A DNA stretch of 64,000 nucleotides from the NCBI GenBank assembly GCA_964406075.1, contig CAYOQI010000006.1, positions 2,529 through 66,528 on the forward strand, given 5' to 3'. This document shows, piece by piece, positions 10,607-44,984 of the stretch (positions are counted from its first letter, which is position 1; each line of letters begins with the position of its first letter). Under the pieces are notes generated by a model that made no database searches, was not told the origin of the DNA, and saw nothing but the letters and a program-made list of their open reading frames with translations. Origin of the DNA: an uncultured Pseudomonadales bacterium (GTDB lineage: Bacteria; Patescibacteriota; Microgenomatia; UBA1400; PJMF01). Both the position numbers and the translations under genes were made by a program.

Positions 10607-13600
10607 TTAATGCTCTAATTTTTCAGCAGATGCTCTGTTAAGAACTTTAGGTAGCTCAATATTCTGTTTCATCACATTTCTAAAATAAGTCGCGTCATCA
10701 CCTCTCGCTAAAAATGTCGACGGCGATATCATTTGCTCGTTTGCCATCCAGGCTTTAACAAATATCTCAATGTTCTCTGTATTCCATTTGAACGGATCAA
10801 ATAAAGCTTTTGCCATGACATTTTGACCTGGTTTTTTACCATGTATATGAGCATGTAGGAAATGCTCAATATCATGTCTGAGATTCTTAGCTACTTCTTT
10901 TGACCGAGTAGTAAACTCAACCTCAAATTTCCTTTCAAAAGCTTCCTGTTCCGCATCGCTGAGTTTTGCACCTTTTTTCTTTTCTTCCGCTCGCAATGCC
11001 TGTTGAAAAGTTCTTGAGCGATATCTACGCAAATACATTGTTCCGTCAACTTGTTTGCCATTATCTAAATAATGCAGATGTGGACGAATATCACCATTCA
11101 TTAGGTTTCGAATAACTAAATCAAGCTCAAATTGAAATGCAGCTGTTGTAGCATCTTTTCCGTTTTGATCTAATAACTCAATCACTTCTCGGAATAATCT
11201 ACCTCTTACATCAGGATCTTGATTGTTAAAATCTAAAAATAATCGCAAGATATAATCAGTTAATAAGGGCTCCATGGTTTTTTCAAGAGTTTTTCCTGCT
11301 CCAAACATTTTCAACTGACCAGCCGCTTTAATCCAATCTGTAATAAGACCACTATCTTTTTTAGCTTTCTGCACGATGGTGTGTTCAGATAAATTATCAG
11401 GGGTCTCTTCCGTCATTTTATTCAGAATGTGGGTCCAACCATCTTCTGCATTTGGATACTGACCTGCGTCAGTAACCTTAATCTTTCCGGTATTCCAATC
11501 TAGCACCTCGTCTTCCTGTAAATGGACGTAATCATACGTTGAAGTAAAAACAGTATCAGCACCTGTCACGGGATCAATTGAATCAAATAAGACTTCAGCA
11601 TCATCTCCAAACAAAGCTCTTCTTCTTAACCTTTCTAAATATTGCACTTTTCGCAAGATTTCTCTTTTTTCATCGTTAGCACAATAATCATCGGTAATTT
11701 CTTGAAAAACAAACCAGTTCATTCTTTCTGATTTTATATTCGTAGCTCTTTGTGCTGAATGTACTGCCCCTGCAGCCGGATCATCTAGCCATATCCGATC
11801 TTTATCTGGAACTTGAGGGTTATGACCACGAGTTTTCGTTCTTCGCTGAAGCATTCGAAGAATATCTGTCAGCATATCGTGACTAAAAAATGTTTCTACT
11901 ATAAAAAATCTCGCCAAAGATCGTCTCTTATTCTCTTCTTCTTCTAATTTTCTCTGTTCTACTGAAGCCTGTGGCGAAATGATAATTTCCTTAACTCCAG
12001 GCTGATCTTTTAACCAATCCTTTAAGTTATCTCTACCTCTGGTCTCACTGCACAATTTCTCATAGGAGATAATATGAGCAGCATTTCCTGAAGCCGAAAC
12101 TTCATAAGAGGTATAAATTATTTTTTCTAAGAAATTTCTGACAGTCTCACCCCACTCTGGGTGATACGTTACGCCTATAAAGAACTCTGGCCTACTTAGT
12201 TTGTAACTGGTCAACCCACCTGCTTTAAGCACCGTACCATCTGGCGAAACAGTATCGAATATTTGAGATCGATCCACAGTGGCTGATTTCCTCCCTTTTT
12301 TTAAGGAAACATCCATAAATAATAACGATGCCCTCATCTTCTGAACAATTCTATTTAGCTCGGCTGGATTTCTAAAATCTGAATCAAGAGAATTATCAGT
12401 TAAATCATCAAAACGTACAATCAAATCTCTAAGTCTAAGATCTGATTGATTATATTCGCCAAAAGGATCTGCCTGTCTTGTTATTAATTCATCAACAACT
12501 TCCTCTAAAGTTAGATTGTTCGGGGCTTCCCTTAATTCTCTTAGTCTAACAATATGTCTCTCGGCTTTATCCAAATCTGAAATATCATCTTGATTTGCCA
12601 AGGAAACTCCGGCCGCTCGAGCGACCAATCGGGCTTTATCCAAATCGTCTTGTCTTGATTTTAAATACTCTCGATTATATGTGCCCGCGTTATCTTCTTT
12701 TAAAGATAGAATCTCAGTAATAATCTCTTTTAGAACCTTTTGTTTATCTGCCCCCACATCATCTTCTAATTTTTTAATTCTCAATCGTAATTTTTCTAGA
12801 ACTTTTATGGGGCTATTTGGGTTACTTGAACCATCGAGAATTTCCTGCTTTACTTGGTCAGTTTGAGTTCGATTTTCAGGAATCAAATTTAGATTTTGAG
12901 ACTCAAAAGCTGTATTCAAGTTAGTAATTCTTACTAATAATTCTTGTTCGGCCGGTTGAAGCAGTCCATCAATATCATTTGAGGAAAGACTATTACTTGC
13001 ATCTTTTACTGCTGTGTCTAATTTTTGACGAATAATAACACCAGAACCAAACAAGACGTCTTTGAAGAAAGCCATTTGTGCTTGTGGCAACTCTGCAATT
13101 CGTTGATTAGCTTTGTTAAGTCTAGCTTGAATATGCTGTTGTCCATTAATTTTAAATCGATCTGGAAGAATTTTGATTAAATCCTCCATTGAACTTTGGA
13201 TAGCATTTGATTCATCACCCAGATCTTTATAAAGATAAAGATACTCTTCAAGTGAATGACAACTTCTTGTCGAAAAATCAACAAGGACTGCTAAATCACC
13301 ATTCATTTCCTCAATCCATAACCTATACACTTCATCTTCAAGAGGCTGAGCTTGATCTTCAATGGGAATAATATATTTTTCTCGAATAAATGACTCTACT
13401 TCACGTTCGTATCCCTGATATTTCTTTTGCTCGACTAAAATAATTTTTTCCAATCCAGCAACAGCATTATTAAAAACATCTAACTGTGCCTGAGCTGATT
13501 TTCTATCGGAATATGCTGCTTGAGTTTTTATTTCTAAAAGTTTTTGGAAAAACTGGAAACCTGGTTCTTTTGGAGCTGTTTCCTTCCACTGCTCAAACAA

Positions 13601-14359
13601 TAGTTTTTTCTTTCTCTCTTCTAATCTAGTCAGCAATTTTTCCCAAACTGGACGCACTGCTCTTCTTATCTGATCTCTTTTTTCTTCAGCAAAATCCTCT
13701 CCCATAACCGTCACTGACTCATACTTATTCAGGGCAGACAGCATTTTACTCAGAGAGTTTATGTCTGAGACTACTCGATTAAGCTTGTTAGTTGTTTTTT
13801 CTTCAGGAGGATATTCTTCCGTTAGTTGAACATCTTCAACATCATATCGAGAAGTAAATGGGGCAAGTTCACCAAGTGGATTTGGAGTAAATTCAGGTCT
13901 TCTGACAAGTTCTTTGAAAAATTCTCTGGGATTAAAACGTTCTTGTTGCTTTTCCGACGCAATAACCTGGGTTTTTATTTCTCCATGCTCACTTAGTCTT
14001 TTTGAGATATGAGGTCGAAGATTTTTTACCCATCTTTTGGCAATTTTCAGTCTTGCTAAGGGTGTTTCCCAGTCAACATTATTTCCACTAAGATTTTCCT
14101 TTTGTTCACCTGCTTCTTCCTCTTGAATTAATTCATCAAGACTAGCATCTATGAGATCTAAGGTTTTTAGCTCATTCTGTAAATCTTGCTCAGAAATGCC
14201 TTTTGCAGGTGTTTCGTTTAGTTTTTTAGCTAAGGAATAAATTTTTGAAGCAATAGACTCATAACTCCTTAGAGATTTTTTTCCTAAATCCTGATGAGGC
14301 TCTGTTAGCTCTGTATTTGTATGTAAAAAATGTTCATTCATTTGATGTGATTTTACCAT
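10607..14359 (-). CDS. Giant (1250 aa) soluble, charged, alpha-helical/coiled-coil-rich protein of unknown function
   Basis: Uninterrupted 3.75 kb ORF with no hydrophobic segment, no signal peptide and no motif I recognise. Long Glu/Lys/Arg/Leu-rich stretches. Confidence 0.6.
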   Translation of the reverse strand: MVKSHQMNEHFLHTNTELTEPHQDLGKKSLRSYESIASKIYSLAKKLNETPAKGISEQDLQNELKTLDLIDASLDELIQEEEAGEQKENLSGNNVDWETPLARLKIAKRWVKNLRPHISKRLSEHGEIKTQVIASEKQQERFNPREFFKELVRRPEFTPNPLGELAPFTSRYDVEDVQLTEEYPPEEKTTNKLNRVVSDINSLSKMLSALNKYESVTVMGEDFAEEKRDQIRRAVRPVWEKLLTRLEERKKKLLFEQWKETAPKEPGFQFFQKLLEIKTQAAYSDRKSAQAQLDVFNNAVAGLEKIILVEQKKYQGYEREVESFIREKYIIPIEDQAQPLEDEVYRLWIEEMNGDLAVLVDFSTRSCHSLEEYLYLYKDLGDESNAIQSSMEDLIKILPDRFKINGQQHIQARLNKANQRIAELPQAQMAFFKDVLFGSGVIIRQKLDTAVKDASNSLSSNDIDGLLQPAEQELLVRITNLNTAFESQNLNLIPENRTQTDQVKQEILDGSSNPNSPIKVLEKLRLRIKKLEDDVGADKQKVLKEIITEILSLKEDNAGTYNREYLKSRQDDLDKARLVARAAGVSLANQDDISDLDKAERHIVRLRELREAPNNLTLEEVVDELITRQADPFGEYNQSDLRLRDLIVRFDDLTDNSLDSDFRNPAELNRIVQKMRASLLFMDVSLKKGRKSATVDRSQIFDTVSPDGTVLKAGGLTSYKLSRPEFFIGVTYHPEWGETVRNFLEKIIYTSYEVSASGNAAHIISYEKLCSETRGRDNLKDWLKDQPGVKEIIISPQASVEQRKLEEEENKRRSLARFFIVETFFSHDMLTDILRMLQRRTKTRGHNPQVPDKDRIWLDDPAAGAVHSAQRATNIKSERMNWFVFQEITDDYCANDEKREILRKVQYLERLRRRALFGDDAEVLFDSIDPVTGADTVFTSTYDYVHLQEDEVLDWNTGKIKVTDAGQYPNAEDGWTHILNKMTEETPDNLSEHTIVQKAKKDSGLITDWIKAAGQLKMFGAGKTLEKTMEPLLTDYILRLFLDFNNQDPDVRGRLFREVIELLDQNGKDATTAAFQFELDLVIRNLMNGDIRPHLHYLDNGKQVDGTMYLRRYRSRTFQQALRAEEKKKGAKLSDAEQEAFERKFEVEFTTRSKEVAKNLRHDIEHFLHAHIHGKKPGQNVMAKALFDPFKWNTENIEIFVKAWMANEQMISPSTFLARGDDATYFRNVMKQNIELPKVLNRASAEKLEH

Positions 14360-21932: not shown

Positions 21933-24900
21933 ATGGATCTAATAACTCAAAAAATCCCCGAGACTGTTAAATTAATTAGCAAATACGAAAAACGTCAAGA
22001 TGCTAGGTTAAATTTTCGTATTGCATCTGACTCTTTTTACTTTAACCCTCAATTCCTCACTCAACTTCGAGAAACTCTAGAAGATTTTAAGGCCAAACGT
22101 AATACATCTGAAACAGTACGTGTACATTTAGAGAGTCTTGGAATTGATGAAGTTGTTCTTTTCCGTGATTTTCGTAAATTATTCAATGTCATTATTACCC
22201 ACATCAACGAAGCAGATACTTTTATACAGTTTGATCCAAATCAACTTTTTTACGATGAAGAACTTTCTCCAAATGCCGATGATGACTCGGTTCGACATCA
22301 TGATGATCAAGGAATTGAAACCTATGAACTTCTAATTGATGAATTTAACTCTATTCATAAAAGAATTGAAGCTGGAGAAACCTCAGAAGAAATTGCTAGA
22401 GAACCTCGTCGAAAAGAAGAAATTAAAAAAGCTGTTGGAGAAAAAGGCGATACAGAAAAAGCTGCAAAGATACTTGCTGAATTACTCGCAGGACAACAAT
22501 CAACACAGACAGGTGGTGGTGAAGGTCAAACGGTATATCCAACAACTCCTTTAAATCAAAATGTTGTTTCTGCTTCACCATTTACTCCTGAACAAGCCTC
22601 TGTCGAATCAAGCATCGAACATGCCTTGGAGATGCTCCTTATTCGCGAAGTCGCTCGTGAGACAGTCATTCTCGAAAATCTTGTTATCAACACCTATGAC
22701 TTGTCCAAGTATGGCGTTACGAATCTTCCGCAAGGTTTAGAGGAAGTCATTCGAGCAAAAGTTCGTGAATCGATTCTGGGCTTAGATATTCACAAGTATT
22801 TAAAAGCTGATGGAACTTTGGATCAAACCAAGATTATCAGTCTCCGTGCCCACCTGATTCGACACGCGCTTCCAGCAGTCATGCAAAGTGCAATTTTCCA
22901 AGTGGGACTGGCAGAAATGGTTTCCTCCAATGAACGAGCTGTCCAACTGGCAATTGAAGAAGAAGTTCTCAATCAACGCATTGATGCTACCAAAGCTTTT
23001 CAAGACGATACGTTTAAAGATTTTTTCAAAGAACAAGTAGCCTTAGAAGTAATTGCCAAAGGCCTCGATCCTCGAGACATCATTAAAAACGGTAAATATG
23101 CTGAGGTTTTCTCACAAATTGACACAGGTGAACAAAGTAATTTAATTCAAAAGATTAAAGAGAGAGCTGAAGATATTCAAAAGAATGGATTACCGGAACA
23201 TGACACACTGGCTGAAATTTTTAAGAAAACCTCTGTTGAATCTGCAACTGCCTCCGCAATTTTTAGTGACAGCACAATCATTGCCTCTCTCACTCAAGAA
23301 TTTATTGAGACGAATCAACGAATACCTCGAGATTTTAATGAGCTTTATCAAAAGCTTCCCAAAGACTATCAAGAGCTTTTTCAAGTGTTATCTCCCAAAG
23401 AGCAAAATCTTATTTACGTCCGGTTTGTGCGAGTGTCTGAACGAATTCAAGTTGTCCTTCCAAGCGTTGCAATAACTCAAGGTAAAAGATTAACCCAAGA
23501 TGAAGTCAAGCAGGTCAAACTTGCTTTAGTCGGAATGGGTGGGTTTTTCGTTTCCGCAGATGAGAAAACCGATGATCAAGCTGAAAAGAGTTATTCCGAC
23601 GGACAGAAGAATAATTTTAGTAAAGATGTTTTAAAAGTCGCAGCTATATCTCAGCTGACAGACCAACGTATTTTTGAACGTGTTGTTCAGTCTGCTTTAA
23701 AACAACAGGACATCGCCAAACTGTTAGAAAATTCTTTTGATTTAGAACGGTGGTTCCCTCCAGAATACAAAGAATTATTTTCAGTGATTCCTCCGCAGGA
23801 TCGTCAGAGGTATTTGGCCAAGGTCCTGCATGCAGTTGAACAAACGCCCAAAGGTGGGTTCGGTCGAATCCTCAAAGACATGGTTGGGAGAAGAAAAGAT
23901 TTAAGCGTTACCGACATCTCAACTCTTTTTAGCAACGTTGATTTTTCAAAACTTCCACAAGGTGGAAGAGTCATTACTCCACAAGAATTTTTACAATTAG
24001 GAATTTTTACTCCAGAACAACAGCGTGAACTTGCCCGAGTTCAAAAAAATAATCCTGAAGGCATAAAATTGTTGCTTCGCTCGCTCAGAAAAGTAACGGA
24101 CTCTGACAATGGTGGATTACTCAATGCACCTGCTTCACAGAAACTTCAAGAAAAATATGAGCAGATAAAATCTGATCGACAATTGATTGAATCCGGTTTA
24201 ACGCAGTTACTAAAATCTCATGGAATCGATGGTGCTGATCAGCAAGTCATACTTCGACTGCTTCATGCCTATGGTTTAACCAACTCCGCTATCCCGGATC
24301 TTCAGCCAAACATGGAAGCGCTCTACAAACAGTATGGTGGCCGGCTCAAGGGACGCATTGATGATTTACAGAGACAACTCAAGTCTGCAAGAAAAACCGA
24401 CAAAATTCGAGAACTCAACGAAGAGTTAATTCGCAGTCATGCATTGCTCAATAATTTAAAAAACTTCACTGAAGTATTAGCAACTTCTCAGATAGCTCAG
24501 CTTTCAGCCGAAGAATTTGTCCGACAAAAGAAGTCAGTTCGATTACAACAGCTCGCTGAACAAACCTCATCTGAAATGTCTCAAGGTGAACTTGAACAAC
24601 TCATTCAAGAAGAAGAGACTGCCCGACTCCTAGAAATGAATGCGTTGTTGGAACAATACAACGAAGCGGTCATTGCGGATGCAGTCTTCCAATCAGAGCT
24701 ACATAATCGAGATATCGCACACGTTCAGCAAGTGCACGCCCTCCGTGGATTGATGTTGGCTCAGATGAGTGAAGCCGACCAACGACAAATTGCAGATGCA
24801 TTAGAAGTAAATACTGAAAATCCTGACTGGATGGATCAACTCCGAACGAATGTTCAAGTCAGAGGTTTTGGCAACGATTTTCCCAATCTTGGAGCGTATA

Positions 24901-26486
24901 ACCAGTCCAGTTCTGCTCTTTCCAGATTGTCAAACTGGAGAGATCGACTAAATCGACTGAAGTCATTCAAAGGCAAAGCAGTTAAAAAGTTGGCGGGAAA
25001 AATTACCAAAGAAGGGCTTAAAAAAGTTGTTGTTGCGGTTGCTCCTGCACTAGGAGCTGGCGCGGCAGCCGCATTGATAGCTAAATTACTTGGAGCAACT
25101 GTTCAAGTTGCTGCTGGAGCCGGACTCGGCGGGGTTGTTGGCGGTGGTATCGGTTTCCTCGTTGGAGGACCGCTAGGTGCAGTAGCTGGTGGTGCAATAG
25201 GAGGTTTTCTTGGTGGTGCACTTAGTAGCTCAATCGGTGGGGAAACTCTCGTTGGTGGAAAAGCTTTAGCAAGTGATCTAGCAAGCACTGCGGGAAAAGC
25301 AGCTCAAACAGCAGGAAAAGCGTTAGTGGAAGGTGCCACAAACACCGTAACCGCTTCCACCATTTCTCCAACCCTAGGAGTTCCAGTCGGTGCTGTTGTC
25401 GGAGGGACCGTGGCCGGGATAGGTGCCCTCGGAGCTTTCACACTCATGACAGTTCTCGGTGCATTTCTCCCTGATGCCAGCTCTGAATTCGTAGGGTCGG
25501 GTGAAATTTCCCGATTTGTAGAAATTCGAAAATCTGCTTCACCTAAAGCGATTAATAATAATGAAGAAAGAGAGATTAATTACACCATCACAATTTCACC
25601 GAAGGCTGGGTATACCATTACTCCTACGGATATTACCGATACTTTTAGTTATTTAGGTGGGACAAGTCTTTCTTTAACAGATCAAACAGCCCAAATTCTG
25701 AGTTTGTCGGACGGACCAAAAATCGGACAAGCAATTACAGAACCAATCACTTTTAACTACAGTACCTCAATGCAAGGCGTCGATGTTTTAGTGATCAATA
25801 AATTCACACTTGCTTTTACGGCTACAAGAGAAGGTGAATCAGAAGTTGATGAGCTGTCTCGCTCTGCTTCAGTTCGAATTGGAAATCCGAAAGTTGGGTG
25901 CATTGAATTTGGACCCGGGGGATATTACTTCCAATCTGATAGACCTCAGACAACGATTGAGTGGCCTGAAGAAGATAAAAACAGACTTTTGGAAGCATTT
26001 ACTCGGAGACTAGGCACAAATACCTCAGCTATGGAACTACTTTGTGCTGATGGGCAACCTATTACAGTTTATCGACTAAACATACCAAGTGGCATAGGTT
26101 ATCATGGCTTTAAAAACGGGTTAACTTTAGGTTTCTATACTGCAGCATTTGGGAATAATGATAATTTAGAGTATGTACTCACACATGAGCTTGGACATAT
26201 TTTAGATGAAAAAAATCCAGGCCTTCTCCAAGAATTTGCCAGAGCTCAAACGACAAATGACTGCTTTAGTTATCCTTTTGGTTGTGCCGTAGCAGAAGCA
26301 TTTGCAGAAGGATTTGCCGACTTCATCGTCTATACCACCAGACCTTTTGGGGCATATGATGACCCTGGAACTCTAGGAAATGATGGCTACAACTTTAAAG
26401 CCCGGTGGCCAAATGAGTTTCAATGGTTCAAAGACAATGTATTTGGAGGAGAAGAGTGCGACGTAAGTAGTTGTACAGTTCAGTAA
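21933..26486 (+). CDS. Giant (1517 aa) membrane-spanning protein: ~1000 aa helical N-terminal region, Gly/Ala-rich TM block, C-terminal exodomain with an HExxH zincin-like motif
   Basis: Continuous 4.55 kb ORF. Gly-zipper-like hydrophobic region encoded at about 25021-25490 ('GAGLGGVVGGGIGFLVGGPLGAVAGGAIGGFLGGAL'). 'LTHELGHILDE' is encoded at 26184-26198. Cys-rich C-terminus. Confidence 0.65.
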   Translation: MDLITQKIPETVKLISKYEKRQDARLNFRIASDSFYFNPQFLTQLRETLEDFKAKRNTSETVRVHLESLGIDEVVLFRDFRKLFNVIITHINEADTFIQFDPNQLFYDEELSPNADDDSVRHHDDQGIETYELLIDEFNSIHKRIEAGETSEEIAREPRRKEEIKKAVGEKGDTEKAAKILAELLAGQQSTQTGGGEGQTVYPTTPLNQNVVSASPFTPEQASVESSIEHALEMLLIREVARETVILENLVINTYDLSKYGVTNLPQGLEEVIRAKVRESILGLDIHKYLKADGTLDQTKIISLRAHLIRHALPAVMQSAIFQVGLAEMVSSNERAVQLAIEEEVLNQRIDATKAFQDDTFKDFFKEQVALEVIAKGLDPRDIIKNGKYAEVFSQIDTGEQSNLIQKIKERAEDIQKNGLPEHDTLAEIFKKTSVESATASAIFSDSTIIASLTQEFIETNQRIPRDFNELYQKLPKDYQELFQVLSPKEQNLIYVRFVRVSERIQVVLPSVAITQGKRLTQDEVKQVKLALVGMGGFFVSADEKTDDQAEKSYSDGQKNNFSKDVLKVAAISQLTDQRIFERVVQSALKQQDIAKLLENSFDLERWFPPEYKELFSVIPPQDRQRYLAKVLHAVEQTPKGGFGRILKDMVGRRKDLSVTDISTLFSNVDFSKLPQGGRVITPQEFLQLGIFTPEQQRELARVQKNNPEGIKLLLRSLRKVTDSDNGGLLNAPASQKLQEKYEQIKSDRQLIESGLTQLLKSHGIDGADQQVILRLLHAYGLTNSAIPDLQPNMEALYKQYGGRLKGRIDDLQRQLKSARKTDKIRELNEELIRSHALLNNLKNFTEVLATSQIAQLSAEEFVRQKKSVRLQQLAEQTSSEMSQGELEQLIQEEETARLLEMNALLEQYNEAVIADAVFQSELHNRDIAHVQQVHALRGLMLAQMSEADQRQIADALEVNTENPDWMDQLRTNVQVRGFGNDFPNLGAYNQSSSALSRLSNWRDRLNRLKSFKGKAVKKLAGKITKEGLKKVVVAVAPALGAGAAAALIAKLLGATVQVAAGAGLGGVVGGGIGFLVGGPLGAVAGGAIGGFLGGALSSSIGGETLVGGKALASDLASTAGKAAQTAGKALVEGATNTVTASTISPTLGVPVGAVVGGTVAGIGALGAFTLMTVLGAFLPDASSEFVGSGEISRFVEIRKSASPKAINNNEEREINYTITISPKAGYTITPTDITDTFSYLGGTSLSLTDQTAQILSLSDGPKIGQAITEPITFNYSTSMQGVDVLVINKFTLAFTATREGESEVDELSRSASVRIGNPKVGCIEFGPGGYYFQSDRPQTTIEWPEEDKNRLLEAFTRRLGTNTSAMELLCADGQPITVYRLNIPSGIGYHGFKNGLTLGFYTAAFGNNDNLEYVLTHELGHILDEKNPGLLQEFARAQTTNDCFSYPFGCAVAEAFAEGFADFIVYTTRPFGAYDDPGTLGNDGYNFKARWPNEFQWFKDNVFGGEECDVSSCTVQ

Positions 26487-29494: not shown

Positions 29495-31378
29495 ATGAGT
29501 CCATCGATTTCACTTCCATTCCCTTTCGGAAAAAAGAAAGTGAAAGAGGAAGATCCAGCTCAAAAAAAGATTGAAGAAAATCAACTCGTTTTAAAGCAGT
29601 TTGCTCGCGGGTTAGTCAGTATTCAAGACATTATTGCTCCAGAAGCGATTGAGGTTGATTTTACCTATCAAAAAATCAATTCTACTTACACTCGAACATT
29701 TTTTATCGCTGGATATCCTCGTACCGTTCCTGCCAACTGGCTTTCACCACTGATCAACTTCCCACATCGGGCAGATATTGCCATGTACATTTTTCCGGTC
29801 GAAGTGCAGAAAATCATGGATGATTTACGCCGAAAAATCACAGAAATGGAAGCCGAAATTCAGTCAGACATCCGTGCTGGAAAAATCAGCAACATTAATA
29901 CTGAAGTGAAACTTGAAGATGCTCGCTCACTGCAAGAACAATTGGCCAAAGGTGCGGAGCGGTTTTTCCAATTTGGTTTGTATATTACGATTTTTGAAAG
30001 TTCTAAAGATCGCCTCGAAGCTATTACCAAACAACTTCAATCACTCCTCGGAAGTTTGCTTATTGTTTCAAAAAAAGCCTCATTACAAATGGAGGATGGA
30101 TTTAAGACAACCCTTCCCATGGGTGTCGATCGATTGTTAATTACTCGTAATATGGATACGACTTCCTTGGCAACGACATTTCCATTTACTTCGTCTGAAT
30201 TAACGATGGATACCGGCATTGTGTATGGCTTGAATGAACACAATGGTTCGTTAGTCATCTTTGATCGTTTCAGTTTAGAAAACGCCAACATGGTAGTATT
30301 CGCGAAGTCTGGAGCTGGAAAATCCTACACTATTAAGCTGGAAGCCTTACGTCAGCTCGTTTTCGGAACTGATATTTTAATTCTCGACCCCGAACACGAG
30401 TATGAAGATATGTGTACAGCTGTCGGTGGTGAGTACATTAACTTCACTTTTGGATCAGATACAAAAATCAATCCGTTTGATTTATCTGCTGTCTACGAAG
30501 AAGGTGAGAATGAGTTGGGTCAAAAAATCATTTCATTACATTCATTATTAAAAGTCATGCTTGGTCAGATGACAGCTACGGAAGAAGCTACTTTGGATCG
30601 AGCGCTCGTCGCAGCCTACAAGGCCAAAGGTATTACACCTGATCCCGCAACCCAAGCCAATGAACCACCTTTAATGGAAGATCTTTATAAAGCATTGATT
30701 GGTATGGAAAATGATGAAGCCGCTGGTCTGGCTGCTCGGTTAGAAAAATACATCACGGGATCTTTCCGCGGAATTTTTGATCAAAAATCTAATCTCGATA
30801 TCAACAACTCTTTCACCGTTTTTTCTGTCAAAGAATTACATGACGAACTTCGTCCGATTGCCATGTTCATTATCTTAGATTTTATGTGGACTCGAATTAA
30901 GAAAAAGTTAAAAAAACGTATCTTGATTGTCGACGAGGCTTGGTACTTCATGAAGTACGCGGATTCAGCTTCATTCTTACACTCGATGTCAAAACGCGCT
31001 CGAAAATACTACCTCGGGATTACCACTATTACTCAAGACGTAGAAGACTTTTTAACCAATGATTATGGAAAAGCGATTGTGACGAACTCTTCGATTCAAT
31101 TCTTGATGAAACAATCAAGCGCATCGGTTCCTGTTTTAACAGAAACATTCTATCTTTCTCAAGGAGAACAACGATTACTCTTGGCATCCGATGTGGGAGA
31201 AGGTATTTTCTTCGCAGGAACCAATCATGTGGCTTTACGAGTAATCGCTTCACCAGAAGAGCATGAATTGATTACCACTGATCCTGAAGAACTCTTGGCT
31301 CGTCAAAAAATGGCTCAGCAACAAGCTGCTCAAGCTAAAGTCTTGAACGACCGACAAACCACGAACTTAATGAGTTAA
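29495..31378 (+). CDS. virB4: VirB4/PrgJ-type T4SS ATPase
   Basis: Walker A 'VVFAKSGAGKSYT' (GAGKS encoded at 30311-30325) and Walker B 'RILIVDEAWYF'. Also 'ITTITQDVEDF' and an N-domain 'IAPEAIEVDFTYQKINSTYTRTFFIAGYPRTV'. Confidence 0.85.
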   Translation: MSPSISLPFPFGKKKVKEEDPAQKKIEENQLVLKQFARGLVSIQDIIAPEAIEVDFTYQKINSTYTRTFFIAGYPRTVPANWLSPLINFPHRADIAMYIFPVEVQKIMDDLRRKITEMEAEIQSDIRAGKISNINTEVKLEDARSLQEQLAKGAERFFQFGLYITIFESSKDRLEAITKQLQSLLGSLLIVSKKASLQMEDGFKTTLPMGVDRLLITRNMDTTSLATTFPFTSSELTMDTGIVYGLNEHNGSLVIFDRFSLENANMVVFAKSGAGKSYTIKLEALRQLVFGTDILILDPEHEYEDMCTAVGGEYINFTFGSDTKINPFDLSAVYEEGENELGQKIISLHSLLKVMLGQMTATEEATLDRALVAAYKAKGITPDPATQANEPPLMEDLYKALIGMENDEAAGLAARLEKYITGSFRGIFDQKSNLDINNSFTVFSVKELHDELRPIAMFIILDFMWTRIKKKLKKRILIVDEAWYFMKYADSASFLHSMSKRARKYYLGITTITQDVEDFLTNDYGKAIVTNSSIQFLMKQSSASVPVLTETFYLSQGEQRLLLASDVGEGIFFAGTNHVALRVIASPEEHELITTDPEELLARQKMAQQQAAQAKVLNDRQTTNLMS

Positions 31379-31895: not shown

Positions 31896-33404
31896 ATGGT
31901 GGAATCTCCAGCAACTCTGTGGGCTCAGGTAACAGCTCATCTATCTCAGAATCTTTCTCAGGGTGTTTTTAGAACTTGGGTAGCTCCAAGCCAGCTTCAA
32001 GAAGTTAATTTCCAAGACGACCACTTAGTCTGCGTCATTGAAGCACCGACCAACTTCCACATCACTTTTTTAGAAAAAAACCTCAAAACGAGTTTAGAAA
32101 AAACCCTCACAGAATTCACCCAGGTTCCAGTTCAAGTGATCTTCAAAGTTGGGCAACTCATGCCTCAGCCAGGTAAAACTGGATCTGGTAAACAAAAACC
32201 AATTTCTTCTTCTCCACCACTTTCAGAAATTCAAAATGTAAAAGATGTTCCCAACGATCAATTCTCCCCTACGGTTGAGTCACTTTTTTCGCAACACTCG
32301 GTAGCACAAGCCGAAGTGGATTACACCGAACATAAAATTCGCAACGCCGGATTAAACAAACAATACACGTTTGAAAACTTTGCGGTCTCCTCAACTAACG
32401 AAATGGCTCATGCCGCAGCAGTGGCAGTCTCTCAAAATCCAGGCAAGGCGTATAACGTATTGTATTTATATGGTGGAGTTGGAGTCGGAAAAACGCACTT
32501 AATGCAAGCAGTTGGTCAAAACATTATAAAAGAAAATGCTGATGTCACACTCCTCTACCGCACTGGTGAAGAATTTATGAATGAAATCGTCGAAGCCATT
32601 CAGACCAAGAAAACCATCCAGATGAAGCAACGGTATCGGTCAGTTCAAGTGCTATTGATTGATGACATTCAGTTCATGGCAGGAAAAAGGAGTATGCAGG
32701 AAGAATTCTTTCACACCTTCAATGCTGTTATTAAAACGAGAGGCCAGGTTATTCTCACTTCAGATAGAGCTCCGCATGAAATCCACCCACTGGATGACCG
32801 TATTCAGTCTCGTTTGGAAGGCGGACTGATTATAGATATCCAACAACCTTCATTCGAATTACGTACGGCTATTGTGTTGATTAAAGCCAAACACTATCAA
32901 ATTCAAATTCCGATGGATGTCGCTCAAACGATTGCTTCAAAGGTAACGAGCACCCGCCGATTAGAAGGAGTTGTCAAGGGCGTACATTCTGAAGTCGTTT
33001 TTCGAAAAAAAGCCATCACCAATGAATTGGTCGAACACATCTTAAAACAACAACAAATTCAAGATCCGGAAAGTTTAAAAATATACGCCAAACCTCTAGA
33101 TATCATCAAAACTATTTCCAATCATTACCATATAAAACTGATGGATGTCAGAGGTCCTCGTCGAGAAAAATCAATCACTCTCGCCCGCCACGTTGCGATG
33201 TATTTACTCAAACATGAACTCAATCTTCCACTCCTCGAGATCGGAAGATATTTTGGAAATAGAGATCACACCAGCGTCCTTCATGCCGTAAAGAAAATCG
33301 AGTTTATGCTCGATTCTGATGACCAGCTTGGAACCCAAGTTCAAGCCATCAAAACTTCTCTTTCCGGCGGAGTCAGTCAAGCTCAATATTCTCAAGAAGC
33401 ATAG
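31896..33404 (+). CDS. dnaA: Chromosomal replication initiator DnaA
   Basis: 'LYLYGGVGVGKTHLMQAVG' (Walker A), 'LLIDDIQFMAGK', and the C-terminal DNA-binding 'NRDHTSVLHAVKKIE'. Confidence 0.95.
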   Translation: MVESPATLWAQVTAHLSQNLSQGVFRTWVAPSQLQEVNFQDDHLVCVIEAPTNFHITFLEKNLKTSLEKTLTEFTQVPVQVIFKVGQLMPQPGKTGSGKQKPISSSPPLSEIQNVKDVPNDQFSPTVESLFSQHSVAQAEVDYTEHKIRNAGLNKQYTFENFAVSSTNEMAHAAAVAVSQNPGKAYNVLYLYGGVGVGKTHLMQAVGQNIIKENADVTLLYRTGEEFMNEIVEAIQTKKTIQMKQRYRSVQVLLIDDIQFMAGKRSMQEEFFHTFNAVIKTRGQVILTSDRAPHEIHPLDDRIQSRLEGGLIIDIQQPSFELRTAIVLIKAKHYQIQIPMDVAQTIASKVTSTRRLEGVVKGVHSEVVFRKKAITNELVEHILKQQQIQDPESLKIYAKPLDIIKTISNHYHIKLMDVRGPRREKSITLARHVAMYLLKHELNLPLLEIGRYFGNRDHTSVLHAVKKIEFMLDSDDQLGTQVQAIKTSLSGGVSQAQYSQEA

Positions 33405-33683
33405 TTTTCCACAACTGTGGAAAAGTACGTGTACAACCCTGTGGATTTACTGTGGGGTTTTATTAGCTTGAGGTGTGGATATGTGTGTAACGTTTTTCTT
33501 ACCTTCGCTACTTATCCTCTTTATCCACATTTGTCCACATTTTTATCCACACCTTTACCCACCTATTTCAACACGAATAAAAAGCGAACTACTCAATGAC
33601 TTTGCGCTATTTATTCCTTTTATCCGCAGTTCTACTATCTATTACTACTAATTTATATATATATTTTCTATACTCCAGCCACT
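33405..33683. other. oriC: DnaA-box cluster plus AT-rich unwinding region between dnaA and dnaN
   Basis: Boxes: TTTTCCACA (33405-13) and TGTGGAAAA (33416-24) forming a perfect palindrome; TGTGGATTT (33440-48); TGTGGGGTT (33451-59); TGTGGATAT (33474-82); TTATCCACA (33521-29); TTGTCCACA (33531-39); TTATCCACA (33543-51); TTTACCCAC (33554-62); TTATCCGCA (33620-28). Then an AT-rich run 'attactactaatttatatatatattttctatact' at about 33641-33675. Confidence 0.85.
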
Positions 33684-34790
33684 ATGGAGTTCACAACACG
33701 ACGCGAAAACTTTTTAACGGCTTTGCAAACTGCAACGAGATTTATATCATCGAAGCCTCAGTTACCTATTTTAAATTCTTTTCTTTTAGAAATAACGAAA
33801 GAGAACATTGCCACGTTATCAGCAACTGATCTTCAATTGGGAATTAAAATAACATTTGCAGTCACCACCGCTCAACCAGGGGAAATTGTTATTCCCGCCA
33901 AGCTCTTAACAGAAGTTATTGCTGCTAGCTCTGCTGGAGAAATTATTTGTTCTTTAGCTGGATCAAGATTTTCGGTAAAAACCAATACCACCAAAGCTCA
34001 CTTCCAAACGACTCCCGCCGAGGAATATCCAGTTTTTCCTAAGCAAGAAGGTGAAGTCGTTCAACTTCCCAAGTTATTTTTTAGTGAAATTGATAAACAA
34101 ATCGTTTTTGCCACAAGTAAAGACGAAACTCGTCCAGTCTTGACTGGAGTGTATTTGCAAATTAATGAAGTACTCGAAGCGGCAGCGACCGATGGCTATC
34201 GTTTGGCTCTCTTTCGACAACCGTTCGTAACGAGTAAAAACTCCACGATTCTCTTTCCTGCTCGAGCAATTCAGGAAATTTCCCGGTTGCTAGAAAAAGT
34301 TACGTCCGCAAATGTTGATTTTTATTTTTCTTCAGATCTCAAACAAGCTTTTTTCCGTTTTGACAATTCGGAAATGGTCGTCCGCACACTCGACGGAAAC
34401 TTTCCGACGTACAACAAAATTATCCCCAGAGATTTTCAAACAACCGTGCTGATGGATAAACAAGAGTTGGAGCACCAGGTGAAGACAGCTCTCTTATTTA
34501 GTCGAGATATCTCAAGTGTTTTGAAAATGACGTTAGAAAATACGTCCTGCACCATCACGGCTGGAGCTGGCACCACCGGTGAGTACGAAGCTCAAGTGGA
34601 GATAAGTGAAAAAGTTCCAGAAAAGAAACAAATCGCATTTAATGGCAAGTTTGTGCTGGATATTTTGCAGAGAATTCGGACGAAAGAAATCTCCTTCCAG
34701 ATGAATGATGAGATGAAACCTGGTGTTTTTTCTGAAGTTGGCAACGATCAATTGCTGTATGTGGTGATGCCGTTCCGGTTGAATTCATGA
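33684..34790 (+). CDS. dnaN: DNA polymerase III beta sliding clamp DnaN
   Basis: Position after dnaA/oriC, ~368 aa. 'TRFISSKPQLPILNSFLLE', 'TDLQLGIK', 'ETRPVLTGVYL', 'ATDGYRLA' and C-terminal 'YVVMPFRL'. Confidence 0.9.
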   Translation: MEFTTRRENFLTALQTATRFISSKPQLPILNSFLLEITKENIATLSATDLQLGIKITFAVTTAQPGEIVIPAKLLTEVIAASSAGEIICSLAGSRFSVKTNTTKAHFQTTPAEEYPVFPKQEGEVVQLPKLFFSEIDKQIVFATSKDETRPVLTGVYLQINEVLEAAATDGYRLALFRQPFVTSKNSTILFPARAIQEISRLLEKVTSANVDFYFSSDLKQAFFRFDNSEMVVRTLDGNFPTYNKIIPRDFQTTVLMDKQELEHQVKTALLFSRDISSVLKMTLENTSCTITAGAGTTGEYEAQVEISEKVPEKKQIAFNGKFVLDILQRIRTKEISFQMNDEMKPGVFSEVGNDQLLYVVMPFRLNS

Positions 34791-41828: not shown

Positions 41829-44051
41829 TTACTTCGTTGGCCAGGCAGAAGAAATAAGTAACTCTTCATTTTCAATTAACTTAGCTTCTTTGAGTTCTTT
41901 CCAAACCGCTTCCGTGACGAACGGTAAAAACGGATGAAGCAGTTTTAAGAAAGTCGTTAAACCTCGAGTAATTGCGGCCCAAGACAACTCACCTTTTTTA
42001 GCTTGTTCAATACATTGATCACAAAACCAATGCCAGAACTCGTTGTAGACGGTTTCAGCAGCTAGACCAATCTTCAGATCATCGAGTTGTTTTGTTACTT
42101 TTTTAGTTACTTCTTCGAGATGTAAATAGAAATCTTGATCGGCAACATTTGGTTCTTGGCTCTTTGATTCAAGATCTTCGAGATTGGTGATAACAAATCG
42201 AGTTGCGTTCCAAATTTTATTCGAAAAGTTTCGCATGCCTTTAACTTTCATTTCTCCTACAGCTGAGTCACTCCCTGGTGTAGTGGACATGACGAGTGCC
42301 ATTCTCAGTGCATCGGCTCCATATTTTTCTACTAGATCTAAAGGATTAATAACATTGCCTTTACTTTTACTCATTTTTTGACCTTTTTCGTCTCGAACAA
42401 GTCCATGGAGATAGACATCTTTAAACGGAGTTTTTCCGGTCAAATAAATCCCAAGTAACATCATTCTCATCACCCAGAAGGGGAGAATGTCATAACCTGT
42501 TTCCATGACAGAAGTAGGGTAGAAGCGGTCAAAGTCGTTAACTTGATTTGTTTTTAATGTCACTACCGGCCACTGTCCAGAAGAGAACCATGTATCGAAG
42601 GTATCAGTTTCCTGAAGAAAATTTTCACCTGGGGAAGTAGTAGAAACAGTGAATGTTGCTTTTGACGGAGCAGTTAACTGTTGTAACCCTTTTTGAATTT
42701 CCTCAGTAGAAAAATCCTTTTGTAAATCTTTAATAACACCGGTCTGTGTCTCACCTTTTGTGTCAATAAAACGAATAACTAACTCAGGATTTTCTTCAAC
42801 TGAATACCACACTGGCATTCGGATTCCCCAGACAATTTGACGAGAAATATTCCAGTCTTTCAGATTTTCTAGCCAATGTCGCAGGATCTTATCTCGACCA
42901 GCTCCATGAATTCGCGTTTCCTTATTATCTAAAACTTCTAGTGTTTTTTCGACTAAAGGTTTGACTTTGATGAAAAATTGAGGCAAGGGAAGTGGTTCTA
43001 AAACGGTTCCACATCGATAACACACACCGATCGTATTGGTGTAATCTGTTTTAGTGGGTTGTGCTAATAATCCTTTTTCGGCTAAATCTTTCTCAATTTG
43101 TTCTCGAGATATTTTAACTTTCAAACCAGCGTATTTCCCAGCAACTTCTGTTAACTTCCCATCGAGCCCAATGACTTGCTTTGGCTCAGGCATTTCTTCT
43201 TTGTGACGTTGCCAGACTTCAAAGTCGTTAAAGTCGTGATATGGAGTAATCTTCACGACTCCAGTTCCAAACTCGCGATCAACATACTCATCTGCAACTA
43301 CTTTCATCTTGAATTTTCCCAGCAAGCCTTCGACTTCAATTTCTTGACCGATGTACTGTTTGTACCGATCATCTTCTGGATGAACAGCTACAGCAGTATC
43401 AGCAAACTTCGTTTCCGGTCGAGTAGTTGCTAACGTGAATGGTCCATACTTGAGGTAGTAAAGTTTTGAAGTTTGTTCAACGTGATTGACTTCCAATTCA
43501 GAGTAACTAGTACCGCACTTAGTGCAGAAATTAACAAGACGTAAATCGCGATACACCAATTCATTTTTATGTAGGTCTTGAAATGTATTCAACACAAATT
43601 CGACGATTTCAGGATTTAGCGTGAACTTAAATCTTGACCAATCCGCACTTGCACCGAGTCGTTTCATTTGATTTACCGCCACTCCGGAGTTTTCTTGCAC
43701 ATACTCCCAGATCATTTTGTAGAGGGTTTCTCGATCGAATTGAAAACGAGATTTGCCTTGTTTACTGAGTTTTTTCTCAAACACAAACTGTGTTTCAATC
43801 CCAGCGTGATCAGTACCTGGAATCCAAACCGTGTCATCACCTTTCATTCTGTGATAACGGATTAAAATATCCTCAAGTGCCACAAACATCGCATGACCGA
43901 TGTGAAGGGGATCATTAGCATTAGGTGGAGGCATGATGATAGAGAAGGAGGGTGATTTAGATTTCTGAGTATCTGGAGTAAATGCTTTAGCTTTTTCCCA
44001 AAGTTCATAGATTGGTTGTTCGTATTGGTTGTGGTTATAAGATTTTTCCAT
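41829..44051 (-). CDS. valS: Valyl-tRNA synthetase (short form)
   Basis: 'PPPNANDPLHIGHAM' (HIGH), 'WIPGTDHAGIETQ', 'KMSKSKGN' (KMSKS). The N-terminus is typical of ValRS. Confidence 0.9.
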   Translation of the reverse strand: MEKSYNHNQYEQPIYELWEKAKAFTPDTQKSKSPSFSIIMPPPNANDPLHIGHAMFVALEDILIRYHRMKGDDTVWIPGTDHAGIETQFVFEKKLSKQGKSRFQFDRETLYKMIWEYVQENSGVAVNQMKRLGASADWSRFKFTLNPEIVEFVLNTFQDLHKNELVYRDLRLVNFCTKCGTSYSELEVNHVEQTSKLYYLKYGPFTLATTRPETKFADTAVAVHPEDDRYKQYIGQEIEVEGLLGKFKMKVVADEYVDREFGTGVVKITPYHDFNDFEVWQRHKEEMPEPKQVIGLDGKLTEVAGKYAGLKVKISREQIEKDLAEKGLLAQPTKTDYTNTIGVCYRCGTVLEPLPLPQFFIKVKPLVEKTLEVLDNKETRIHGAGRDKILRHWLENLKDWNISRQIVWGIRMPVWYSVEENPELVIRFIDTKGETQTGVIKDLQKDFSTEEIQKGLQQLTAPSKATFTVSTTSPGENFLQETDTFDTWFSSGQWPVVTLKTNQVNDFDRFYPTSVMETGYDILPFWVMRMMLLGIYLTGKTPFKDVYLHGLVRDEKGQKMSKSKGNVINPLDLVEKYGADALRMALVMSTTPGSDSAVGEMKVKGMRNFSNKIWNATRFVITNLEDLESKSQEPNVADQDFYLHLEEVTKKVTKQLDDLKIGLAAETVYNEFWHWFCDQCIEQAKKGELSWAAITRGLTTFLKLLHPFLPFVTEAVWKELKEAKLIENEELLISSAWPTK

Positions 44052-44144
44052 AATTAAACGTCGTCCTGGAAGGTCAAGCCGAACACAATAATTTCATTTA
44101 AATTCATATAAGGCATGAATATTCAGGATCCCTCCTTTGATAAT

Positions 44145-44333
44145 AAAAAAACCTTTTGTATACAGACAATATATCTGCAGACAAAAGGTTTTTCTAATTG
44201 AATTTAGAAAAAGGTACCAACCTTTTTATTCTTAATTGTTGCTATTACGGGCATACCCGTTGAGGTCTACTTGCCAAAAAGGCGTTCTGCTCAAATTCCC
44301 ATAAAGGGATCGGTGACTAGCCGAATGCTTGTA
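44145..44333 (-). promoter_or_regulatory. T-box-like riboswitch leader of valS (antiterminator/terminator switch), candidate
   Basis: The minus strand reads AAAAGGU-UGGUACC-UUUUUCUAA-AUUCAA-UUAGAAAAA-CCUUUU. That is helix A1, a 7-8 nt bulge with UGGU, hairpin A2 and the A1 3' strand. The A1 3' strand is also the 5' arm of a strong terminator (AAAAACCUUUUGU ... ACAAAAGGUUUUUUU, plus coordinates 44145-44193). A small hairpin ACGGG-UAUG-CCCGU sits just upstream. A possible GUC (Val) specifier followed by A lies at 44317-44314. Confidence 0.55.
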
Positions 44334-44339
44334 CAATGC

Positions 44340-44348
44340 ATTATATCA
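44340..44348 (-). promoter_or_regulatory. Extended -10 promoter (TGATATAAT) driving the valS leader
   Basis: The minus strand reads 'aaaTGATATAATgcattg', about 290 nt upstream of the valS ATG. Confidence 0.45.
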
Positions 44349-44624
44349 TTTCGAAATTATCATTCGAAATGAAACTAAGGTTGTGCATTTAATAATTAGC
44401 CGATTTTGATGACCTTTGATGTCAGTACTCTGGAAAATAAGTTATTGTTTGTATCGAAATTCTTATTAAAGAGTTACACATGAGTGCTATTCCTTTAACT
44501 ATCAAGAAGAATGATCCCACTTCGCCAAAGGCTTCGTGGGACTAACCTAATTCAGTGATTTGTCTTATAAATACGCCAGTGCAATATATTATTTTTTCGT
44601 TGTAAAAGTCCGAGGAAGGAAAAT

Positions 44625-44984
44625 ATGTCAGATTCATTGCTTCATAAAAAATGCGTGCCGTGTGAAGGGGGAACAGAGCCACTCAAAAAAGAGGAAGAAG
44701 ATCTCTACTTTGAACAAACTCCCGATTGGACAGTTCTTCGTGAAGGCTCTCATCAATTAGTTCGAGAGTTTGAGTTTAAAAACTTTCGTGAAGTCTTAGA
44801 CGTGGTTGCCAAGATAGGAGAGATTGCTGAATCTGAAGGTCACCACCCAAATCTCTATATGCATGATTGGAAAAAATTAAAGGTGGAACTCACTACTCAT
44901 GCTATTGGAGGTTTATCTATTAATGATTTTATTCTTGCCGTGAAGATTGATGAGATGGTGAAAAAAGGTAGTGTAGAATTTTAA
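44625..44984 (+). CDS. phhB: Pterin-4a-carbinolamine dehydratase (PCD/DCoH family)
   Basis: 'FEFKNFREVLDVVAKIGEIAESEGHHPNLYMHDWKKLKVELTTHAIGGLSINDF' (the family's 'E.E.HHP' core). Confidence 0.8.
   Translation: MSDSLLHKKCVPCEGGTEPLKKEEEDLYFEQTPDWTVLREGSHQLVREFEFKNFREVLDVVAKIGEIAESEGHHPNLYMHDWKKLKVELTTHAIGGLSINDFILAVKIDEMVKKGSVEF

Follow-up and report, generated by a model that had tools for sequence, protein, structure and literature searches.

The valine-tRNA ligase gene valS in the DNA stretch studied here is preceded by a leader that, by its homology and its core features, is a predicted T-box riboswitch of reduced architecture. The stretch, referred to throughout as the window, is 64 kb long; all coordinates are those of the window, and the leader is read on the minus strand from 44348 to 44145. 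The features that place it among the T-boxes are a putative specifier, a Stem II with an S-turn, a T-box bulge with helix A1 on one side and A2 on the other, and a terminator that competes with them. We consider it highly likely that the leader functions as an attenuator that senses tRNA-Val; its anatomy, homology, and covariation carry this reading, and its tRNA dependence would follow from the established T-box mechanism. The variant is new both in structure and in phylum, and it falls short of T-box criteria on four counts, namely the Stem I platform, the kink-turn (K-turn), Stem III, and the Rfam threshold. All of the sequence features quoted in an initial annotation of this DNA (promoter, antiterminator, terminator, and a run of seven U residues [U7]) are present on the minus strand, and its proposal, a compact T-box in which Stem I is very short, is borne out by homology and covariation, with Stem I reduced to 4 base pairs (bp).

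The valyl-tRNA synthetase (ValRS) of the window and the products of the neighboring genes group with Patescibacteria (candidate phyla radiation [CPR]), in Microgenomates-type bins. The nearest proteins in a set of 5.8 billion are 69 to 74% identical, and the best genome matches, 59 to 66% identical, are metagenome-assembled genomes (MAGs) of Chisholmbacteria, Woesebacteria, Collierbacteria, and Pacebacteria. The valS loci sampled in Microgenomates-type CPR bacteria number approximately 140; approximately 27 of them have a leader composed of corresponding parts in identical order, and approximately 110 have none. The closest relative, L161 (ValRS 74% identical), shares the window gene order Pterin_4a, valS, L25, and DUF4012, and it is one of the five among the seven nearest relatives in which the leader is present. 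Leaders of group A carry a IIA-type hairpin and include that of the window together with L161, L163, L165, L166, L167, L045, L050, L003, and L002. Those of group B are more compact, the shortest measuring approximately 115 to 120 nucleotides (nt), and are found at L020, L021, L024, L029, L031, L039, and L052, with L092, L116, L120, L123, L125, L132, and L139 as further members.

From 5' to 3', the window leader is made up of the following parts:

44310 to 44324, minus strand: ultrashort Stem I, 4 bp (UCGG/CCGA) with a 7-nt loop (CUAGUCA); covariation in relatives.
44297 to 44309, minus strand: small additional hairpin (UCCC-UUUAU-GGGA) lying between Stems I and II; position filled in relatives.
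44261 to 44293, minus strand: Stem II (UGAG-CAGAAC-GCC-UUUUU-GGC-AAGUAGAC-CUCA); architecture common to 17 leaders.
44245 to 44259, minus strand: Stem IIA-like hairpin (CGGG-UAUG-CCCG); kept in 10 group-A leaders.
44227 to 44247, minus strand: purine-rich linker (UAAUAGCAACAAUUAAGAAUA), 21 nt, unpaired, between the IIA hairpin and A1.
44183 to 44226, minus strand: antiterminator (discriminator), consisting of A1, bulge, and A2; covariation and an invariant UGG-AC.
44145 to 44194, minus strand: intrinsic terminator, a 16-bp hairpin (44188 to 44152) with an A-tract (44193 to 44189) and U7 (44151 to 44145); folding and layout in relatives.

The leader as a whole folds 4.6 standard deviations better than shuffled versions of itself, and none of 200 shuffles equals it. 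The valine specifier GUC is located at 44317 to 44315 and the conserved purine, an A, at 44314, both in the 7-nt terminal loop of Stem I; the initial annotation had recognized this GUC-A (44317 to 44314) but had assigned it to a stem region rather than to the loop of a 4-bp hairpin. Stem I totals only 15 nt, leaving no space for an AG bulge, an internal Specifier Loop, or a distal loop (the tRNA-elbow platform, IDTM). The AG bulge and distal loop that the annotation could not find are truly absent, and upper Stem I is missing from every one of the 23 leaders in which this stem could be read. The window also has no K-turn (GA motif) at the Stem I base, as AAGCAU-UCGG...CCGA-UCCC has no tandem GA; group-B relatives keep the K-turn arrangement GC-NNN-GA...GA-GC. 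The small hairpin that follows has equivalents of other sequence in L161 (UCCCGAU..AUCGGGA), L050 (UGAGA..UCUCA), and L045 (ACUCU..AGAGU).

The internal loop of Stem II, with GAA facing AGUAGA, is an S-turn (five-purine string, loop E) motif that agrees with the published description (PMC7583486). The IIA-type hairpin (from 44259) is followed by UAAUAGC, which ends at 44241, and an F-box-like CCGUAA occupies 44250 to 44245. The published F-box sequences, CCGUUA and CCGUCA (PMC7583486), are found at this place in L163 and L161, respectively. The IIA-like stem is invariant across leaders, and its loop is only 4 nt long; inspection of nine leaders revealed no consistent complementarity between tetraloop and linker, and no covariation, that would indicate a IIA/B pseudoknot. 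A hairpin can largely replace this pseudoknot experimentally (PMC7583486). Within the linker, an RAG trinucleotide, whose role is described in PMC11297988, is present as AAG at 44233 to 44231. The linker aligns with that of L163 (ACAGCACCAAUCAAGAACAAAAUACGA), likewise without Stem III, which is also absent in L050 and group B and is present in L161, L002, L045, and L165-L167.

The antiterminator has the layout AAAAGG-U[UGGUACC]UUUUUCUAA-AUUCAA-UUAGAAAAA-CCUUUU. Its A1 strands are AAAAGG (44226 to 44221) and CCUUUU (44188 to 44183), with an extra U at 44220 on the 5' side of the 7-nt bulge UGGUACC (44219 to 44213). A2, 9 bp in the window and made of A-U pairs with one G-C, is formed by UUUUUCUAA (44212 to 44204) and UUAGAAAAA (44197 to 44189) around the loop AUUCAA (44203 to 44198). 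As initially proposed, the UGGU of the bulge lies between A1 and A2 and would suit an ACCA 3' end. The 5' arm of the terminator takes in the A1 3' strand and, when the A-tract is counted, also a portion of the A2 3' strand; its stem comprises 8 plus 8 bp around one mismatch, to which the U-tract can add as many as five or six A-U pairs. The mutual exclusion of the two structures through the common A1 3' strand, and the U7 that follows, therefore stand as first described, with the hairpin corrected from 12 to 13 bp to 16 bp. The antiterminator has a free energy of approximately -7.6 to -8.7 kcal/mol and is the minimum free energy structure of a nascent transcript that ends with the A1 3' strand. 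Upon synthesis of its 3' arm, the terminator is predicted to take over through that strand; it reaches -17.6 (core) to -25.4 kcal/mol, with -34.2 kcal/mol for the whole region. The relatives have the same overlap and the same imbalance, with antiterminators of -5 to -11 kcal/mol versus terminators of -14 to -28 kcal/mol; group-B terminators are GC-rich, with U5 to U7. The gene upstream of the leader is divergent, and the terminator therefore does not end another transcription unit.

Homology ties the window leader to sequences that the general T-box model partly recognizes. The Rfam family RF00230 has a gathering score of 93 bits, and a clostridial valS leader (L061) used as a positive control scored 139 bits. 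Below gathering, the leader of L002 matched with 36 bits (E=8.8e-7), in an alignment that assigned its GAA...AGUAGAA helix to Stem II, CGGGGAAGCCCGUGA to Stem IIA/F-box, GGUGGUACC to the T-box, and one hairpin to Stem III, with 87 Stem I model positions deleted. The L161 leader scored 28.2 bits (E=1e-4), also below gathering and with Stem IIA/F-box aligned, and that of L020 (group B) scored 15.5 bits; no T-box match was obtained for the L045 leader. Seven group-A leaders, the window not included, were combined into an nhmmer profile, and its search of both strands of the 64-kb window gave a single match, the leader itself, at 44329 to 44182 (E=8.5e-16, 51 bits). L161 alone as the nhmmer query gave E=6.2e-10, and an earlier three-leader profile gave E=1.7e-7. 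Matches of Rfam microRNA and small nucleolar RNA hairpins on the terminator were spurious.

Specificity was assessed with a structural descriptor that demanded UGGNAC[CA], an A1 of at least 4 bp, an A2 of at least 3 bp, an S-turn Stem II, a U-run, and a hairpin of at least 4 bp with an NNNGUCA loop. Scanned over 2.07 Mb (the window and 160 loci, both strands), it returned 13 matches, all of them valS leaders and the window among them, and zero elsewhere. No other convincing T-box-like discriminator was found in the window, which has no further aminoacyl-tRNA synthetase gene. A covariance model, R1, was built from six compact group-B leaders (effective sequence number 1.49); it recovers other group-B leaders at 48 to 119 bits and L045 and L050 at only 11 to 12 bits. 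R1 is too narrow, and MAFFT failed to hold Stem II in register. One R1 match, L020:2146-2246 (23.6 bits), was dismissed as a chance match, as it lies inside a 461-amino-acid (aa) open reading frame (ORF) and lacks both UGGNACC and A1.

Covariation was computed on fixed-register extracts for three helices. In Stem I (23 leaders), all four pairs show compensatory changes, and the covariation score is 0.82 compared to at most 0.17 in slid registers; in Stem II (17 leaders), the changes extend to all seven pairs, with a score of 0.90 versus 0.38 in the best slid register; and in A1/A2 (16 distinct leaders), they affect eight of nine pairs, with a score of 0.76 versus 0.20. Paired cells amount to 92% versus 64% in shuffled controls for Stem I, 92% versus 57% for Stem II, and 90% versus 64% for A1/A2, with 0/500 shuffles equaling the observed value in each case, although the A2/A1 3' boundaries and the Stem II 5' register come from a pair-maximizing parse that inflates percent paired, and the shuffle control ignores phylogeny; distinct pair types and slid controls are the more robust signals. 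In the window itself the helices pair perfectly (Stem I 4/4, Stem II 7/7, A1 6/6, and A2 9/9), and its A1 differs from that of L161 by compensatory change, from AGAGG/CCUCU to AAAAGG/CCUUUU.

GUCA is invariant in 23 valS leaders, GAA and the opposing UAGA (usually AGUAGA) are invariant in the 17 leaders with an aligned Stem II, and UGG-AC of the bulge is invariant in 16 distinct leaders, with exceptions at N and C7 in L003 and L050. These are exactly the places where the tRNA or the S-turn acts, and they support the T-box assignment. The L003 bulge (approximately positions 45 to 51) reads UGGCACA, in which N is C and would require G73, and all other leaders have UGGU; the bulges of L050 and L003 finish in A, not C. 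The initial annotation had called for a covariation analysis of related valS leaders and had tied rejection of its reading to a missing model match combined with missing compensatory changes. The changes are there in all three helices, and its reading is thus supported.

By sequence and comparison, the nascent leader folds into the 4-bp Stem I exposing GUC and the purine, Stem II, the IIA-type hairpin, and the discriminator. Based on the mechanism established for other T-boxes (PMC7583486; PMC11297988), the GAC anticodon of tRNA-Val would pair with GUC. The five-purine string of the Stem II S-turn would clamp and read the minor groove of the anticodon-specifier duplex, which would explain the C-ending specifier. 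With no elbow platform, K-turn, or Stem III, capture of the tRNA would be left to Stem I, Stem II, and the discriminator alone, in the manner of the actinobacterial translational ileS T-boxes. With uncharged tRNA, the 3' ACCA would pair with UGGU (U opposite A73), the antiterminator would be stabilized, and RNA polymerase would read into valS; charged tRNA-Val would be unable to pair, so that the terminator would form and transcription would stop at 44145 to 44151. A73 is the discriminator base of bacterial tRNA-Val and suits the U of UGGU. A tRNA-Val gene, sought for its GAC and A73, was absent from the window (which has tRNA-Pro only) and from 60 related loci. Both C-ending specifiers and UGGU conform to known T-box rules (PMC7583486; PMC7778990).

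Forms still shorter than those of group B occur at L126:1389-1430, L127:1341-1380 (identical to L130), and L138:1329-1366, in which Stem II is lost and a K-turn-type Stem I with GUCA is retained together with a canonical antiterminator and terminator, the specifier and the T-box bulge being only 37 to 41 nt apart. These forms are either ultraminimal T-boxes or decaying ones. At the other extreme, L163 (approximately 1110 to 1400), L166, and L167 (approximately 810 to 1090) carry apical insertions of approximately 190 to 270 nt between the conserved AGGAAA and GAGUAGAA strands of Stem II, which therefore tolerates very large insertions. A palindrome of approximately 27 nt, GGATTCC(G/C)GRTCARGYC(C/G)GGAATGAC, recurs at L165 (approximately 1080 to 1150) and at L021, L031, and L039, where it is inserted within the apical loop of Stem II and a second time past the terminator. 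It has the appearance of a small genomic repeat of these CPR bacteria, of the repetitive extragenic palindrome (REP) or miniature inverted-repeat transposable element (MITE) type. In L050, L003, and L161, AGGAGG or GAGG is part of the terminator 3' arm, and the U-tract runs directly up to the ATG, which makes a dual mode possible in which termination would be combined with sequestration of the ribosome-binding site. At most CPR valS loci (L001, L004, L007-L018, and others), a TAnAAT box lies only 5 to 9 nt before the valS ATG, which suggests that valS mRNAs are leaderless where the T-box is absent.

The leader is contained in the 573-nt gap between valS and its divergent neighbor, and the promoter boxes, the Shine-Dalgarno (SD)-like site, and the upstream ORF (uORF) listed with these genes are putative features read from the sequence:

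41829 to 44051, minus strand: valS, valine-tRNA ligase, 740 aa, with its ATG at 44051; the gene placed under control of the leader.
44625 to 44984, plus strand: Pterin_4a gene, divergent neighbor upstream of the valS leader.
44340 to 44348, minus strand: extended -10 promoter box (TGATATAAT), with comparable boxes in relatives.
44356 to 44369, minus strand: second, tandem copy of the promoter-like repeat.
44138 to 44130, minus strand: SD-like AAAGGAGGG.
44116 to 44054, minus strand: 20-codon uORF (MPYMNLNEIIVFGLTFQDDV), with its stop 2 nt before the valS ATG.

The identity of valS is well supported by NCBIfam NF004349 (787.5 bits; cutoff, 704) and TIGR00422 (777 bits), and its product contains the Pfam domains tRNA-synt_1 and Anticodon_1. 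Coverage of the NCBIfam ValRS profile stops at position 697 of 860; the window ValRS lacks the C-terminal coiled-coil typical of bacterial ValRS, and all CPR relatives are comparably short. Ahead of their leaders, relatives have TGnTAnAAT-type boxes in a place equivalent to that of TGATATAAT. No good -35 element was found for the TGATATAAT box, and a simple promoter/terminator scan called neither this -10 box nor the leader terminator. The promoter-like repeat stands in tandem between 44340 and 44369 on the minus strand (TTTCGAATGATAAT and then TTTCGAAATGATATAAT), giving two extended -10 boxes approximately 14 nt apart.

Downstream of the leader, the SD-like AAAGGAGGG is separated from the uORF by 13 nt, and valS itself has no SD; translation of the uORF may possibly be coupled to that of valS. 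Both the uORF and the SD-like site are specific to the window and are absent in L161, in which the ATG comes directly after the U7 of the terminator. A valine leader-peptide attenuator acting through the uORF was ruled out, as only 2 of its 20 codons are Val codons and it lies downstream of the terminator. Elsewhere in the window, dnaA and dnaN adjoin (31896 to 34790), with the replication origin likely just upstream at approximately 31.4 to 31.9 kb. A TraG-like P-loop protein is encoded at 29495 to 31378, and two very large ORFs, of 1250 aa (10607 to 14359) and 1517 aa (21933 to 26486), have no Pfam match.

Several observations weigh against reading the window leader as a functional T-box attenuator. 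The Rfam T-box model, which the initial annotation had put forward as a check, gives no match on the window at gathering and none for 43950 to 44650 even at E<=10, and R1 finds only a Stem I fragment of 5.5 bits with filters off. The window discriminator is the most AU-rich and the most divergent of the family, with its extra U at the bulge and its 9-bp A2, and the leader has neither the K-turn of group B, nor Stem III, nor a demonstrable pseudoknot. A competing hairpin, AAAAAGGU-UGGU-ACCUUUUU (44208 to 44227, minus strand; -6.5 kcal/mol), buries UGGU in its tetraloop; the hairpin extends the GGUACC palindrome in a way peculiar to the window and could be a kinetic trap or an "anti-antiterminator." Transcriptional T-boxes are moreover held to need an elbow-binding Stem I platform (PMC7583486), and the inflated percentages of paired cells noted above belong on this side as well. 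A missing Rfam match, a self-complementary GGTACC, and AU-rich sequence that gives many hairpins would all be expected if an ordinary hairpin or terminator lay beside a GGUACC palindrome and merely resembled a T-box by chance. We give this next to no credence and regard it as effectively refuted, given the homology to valS leaders of relatives that themselves match the Rfam T-box, the covariation of three helices, and the descriptor result, with every match in 2.07 Mb falling in a valS leader.

Descent from a T-box could also have ended in decay, leaving a relic without response to tRNA, whose only activity would be constitutive, leaky attenuation or which would be functionless. The window copy eludes Rfam as well as the covariance model of group B; it has been stripped of the K-turn, Stem III, and GC-rich helices, UGGU is covered by the competing hairpin, leader loss is common in the lineage, as the many CPR valS loci without a leader attest, and Stem II has disappeared wholly in L126, L127, and L138. 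We nevertheless find decay unlikely, since the tRNA-contacting and S-turn nucleotides are all intact (GUCA, GAA/AGUAGA, UGGUACC, and RAG), all four window helices are perfectly paired, and the compensatory changes in A1 relative to L161 argue for continued selection on the switch. A working T-box might instead have an output that is not, or not only, termination, with translation or the stability of the mRNA as its target, for instance by way of an SD-like site and uORF coupled to valS. The previously known T-boxes with an ultrashort Stem I are all translational, the hairpins of L050, L003, and L161 also sequester a ribosome-binding site, and the window has its SD-like AAAGGAGGG and a uORF ending just before valS. 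However, these two elements follow on the 3' side of U7 and its terminator hairpin, with which they do not pair, and the hairpin with U7 is a textbook intrinsic terminator, of which group B has GC-rich versions with comparable U-tracts; an output of this kind is in our view very improbable. An attenuator that decides on termination in response to tRNA-Val thus remains our preferred reading of the window leader.

Compared to classical transcriptional T-boxes (RF00230; Bacillus subtilis tyrS and the clostridial control L061), the window leader is alike in being the 5' leader of an aminoacyl-tRNA synthetase gene and in having a cognate specifier followed by a purine, the GAA/AGUAGA S-turn in Stem II, a Stem IIA/F-box-like hairpin, an RAG linker, and a UGGNACC bulge between A1 and A2, with the A1 3' strand common to a terminator with a U-tract. 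However, Stem I spans approximately 85 to 90 nt in those T-boxes compared to 15 nt here, and the specifier is presented in an internal loop there and in a terminal 7-nt loop here. The AG bulge, distal loop, K-turn, Stem III, and demonstrable IIA/B pseudoknot are missing, A2 measures 9 bp and consists almost wholly of A-U pairs, and the Rfam scores differ as well (none for the window, 15 to 36 bits for relatives, and 139 bits for the clostridial control).

Intermediate and ultrashort Stem I forms are known from the translational ileS T-boxes of Actinobacteria (PMC7583486; PMC11297988; Sherwood et al. 2015, as cited in PMC7583486), and the truncated-Stem-I model of TBDB has been applied to Actinobacteria only (PMC7778990). 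The window leader shares with these class II T-boxes (Mycobacterium tuberculosis and Nocardia farcinica) a truncated Stem I without the elbow platform, predicted decoding by Stem I in concert with the S-turn of Stem II, and the discriminator logic of a UGGN bulge and RAG. Whereas the class II T-boxes sequester the SD and control translation, the window has a hairpin and U7 upstream of the ribosome-binding site; the former keep the IIA/B pseudoknot and Stem III, and the latter lacks Stem III and has only a simple hairpin with a tetraloop. The gene is valS rather than ileS and the phylum Patescibacteria (CPR) rather than Actinobacteria. Glycine glyQS T-boxes offer another natural simplification in which whole domains are dispensable, but they drop Stem II and IIA/B and retain a long Stem I, the reverse of what is seen in the CPR valS leader.

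T-boxes have been considered characteristic of Firmicutes and a small number of other phyla, and no reports of T-boxes in CPR, Patescibacteria, Microgenomates, or Saccharibacteria were found in the literature searched, to which this absence is limited. Transcriptional T-boxes are also thought to need a long Stem I platform for fast tRNA capture (PMC7583486). The covarying family of approximately 27 CPR valS leaders described here joins an ultrashort Stem I to an intrinsic terminator and is missed at the Rfam gathering threshold. We tentatively propose, as a generalization that we hold to be a little short of probable, that the CPR valS leaders are minimized T-boxes that make a cotranscriptional termination decision without elbow contact, Stem III, or a pseudoknot, which would contradict the view that the platform is essential.

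If the leaders are tRNA dependent, they would extend tRNA-sensing riboswitches to the candidate phyla radiation and would show that current covariance models undercount T-boxes. They would also provide a natural test of which T-box parts are needed for a kinetic (transcriptional) decision, as well as scaffolds of 75 to 180 nt for structural work and synthetic tRNA sensors. The forms at L126, L127, and L138, if they work, would rank as the smallest riboswitches in nature to sense tRNA and would offer a minimal scaffold ready for use. For the organisms themselves, tRNA dependence would mean that bacteria with reduced genomes, which probably scavenge amino acids, directly monitor valine charging.

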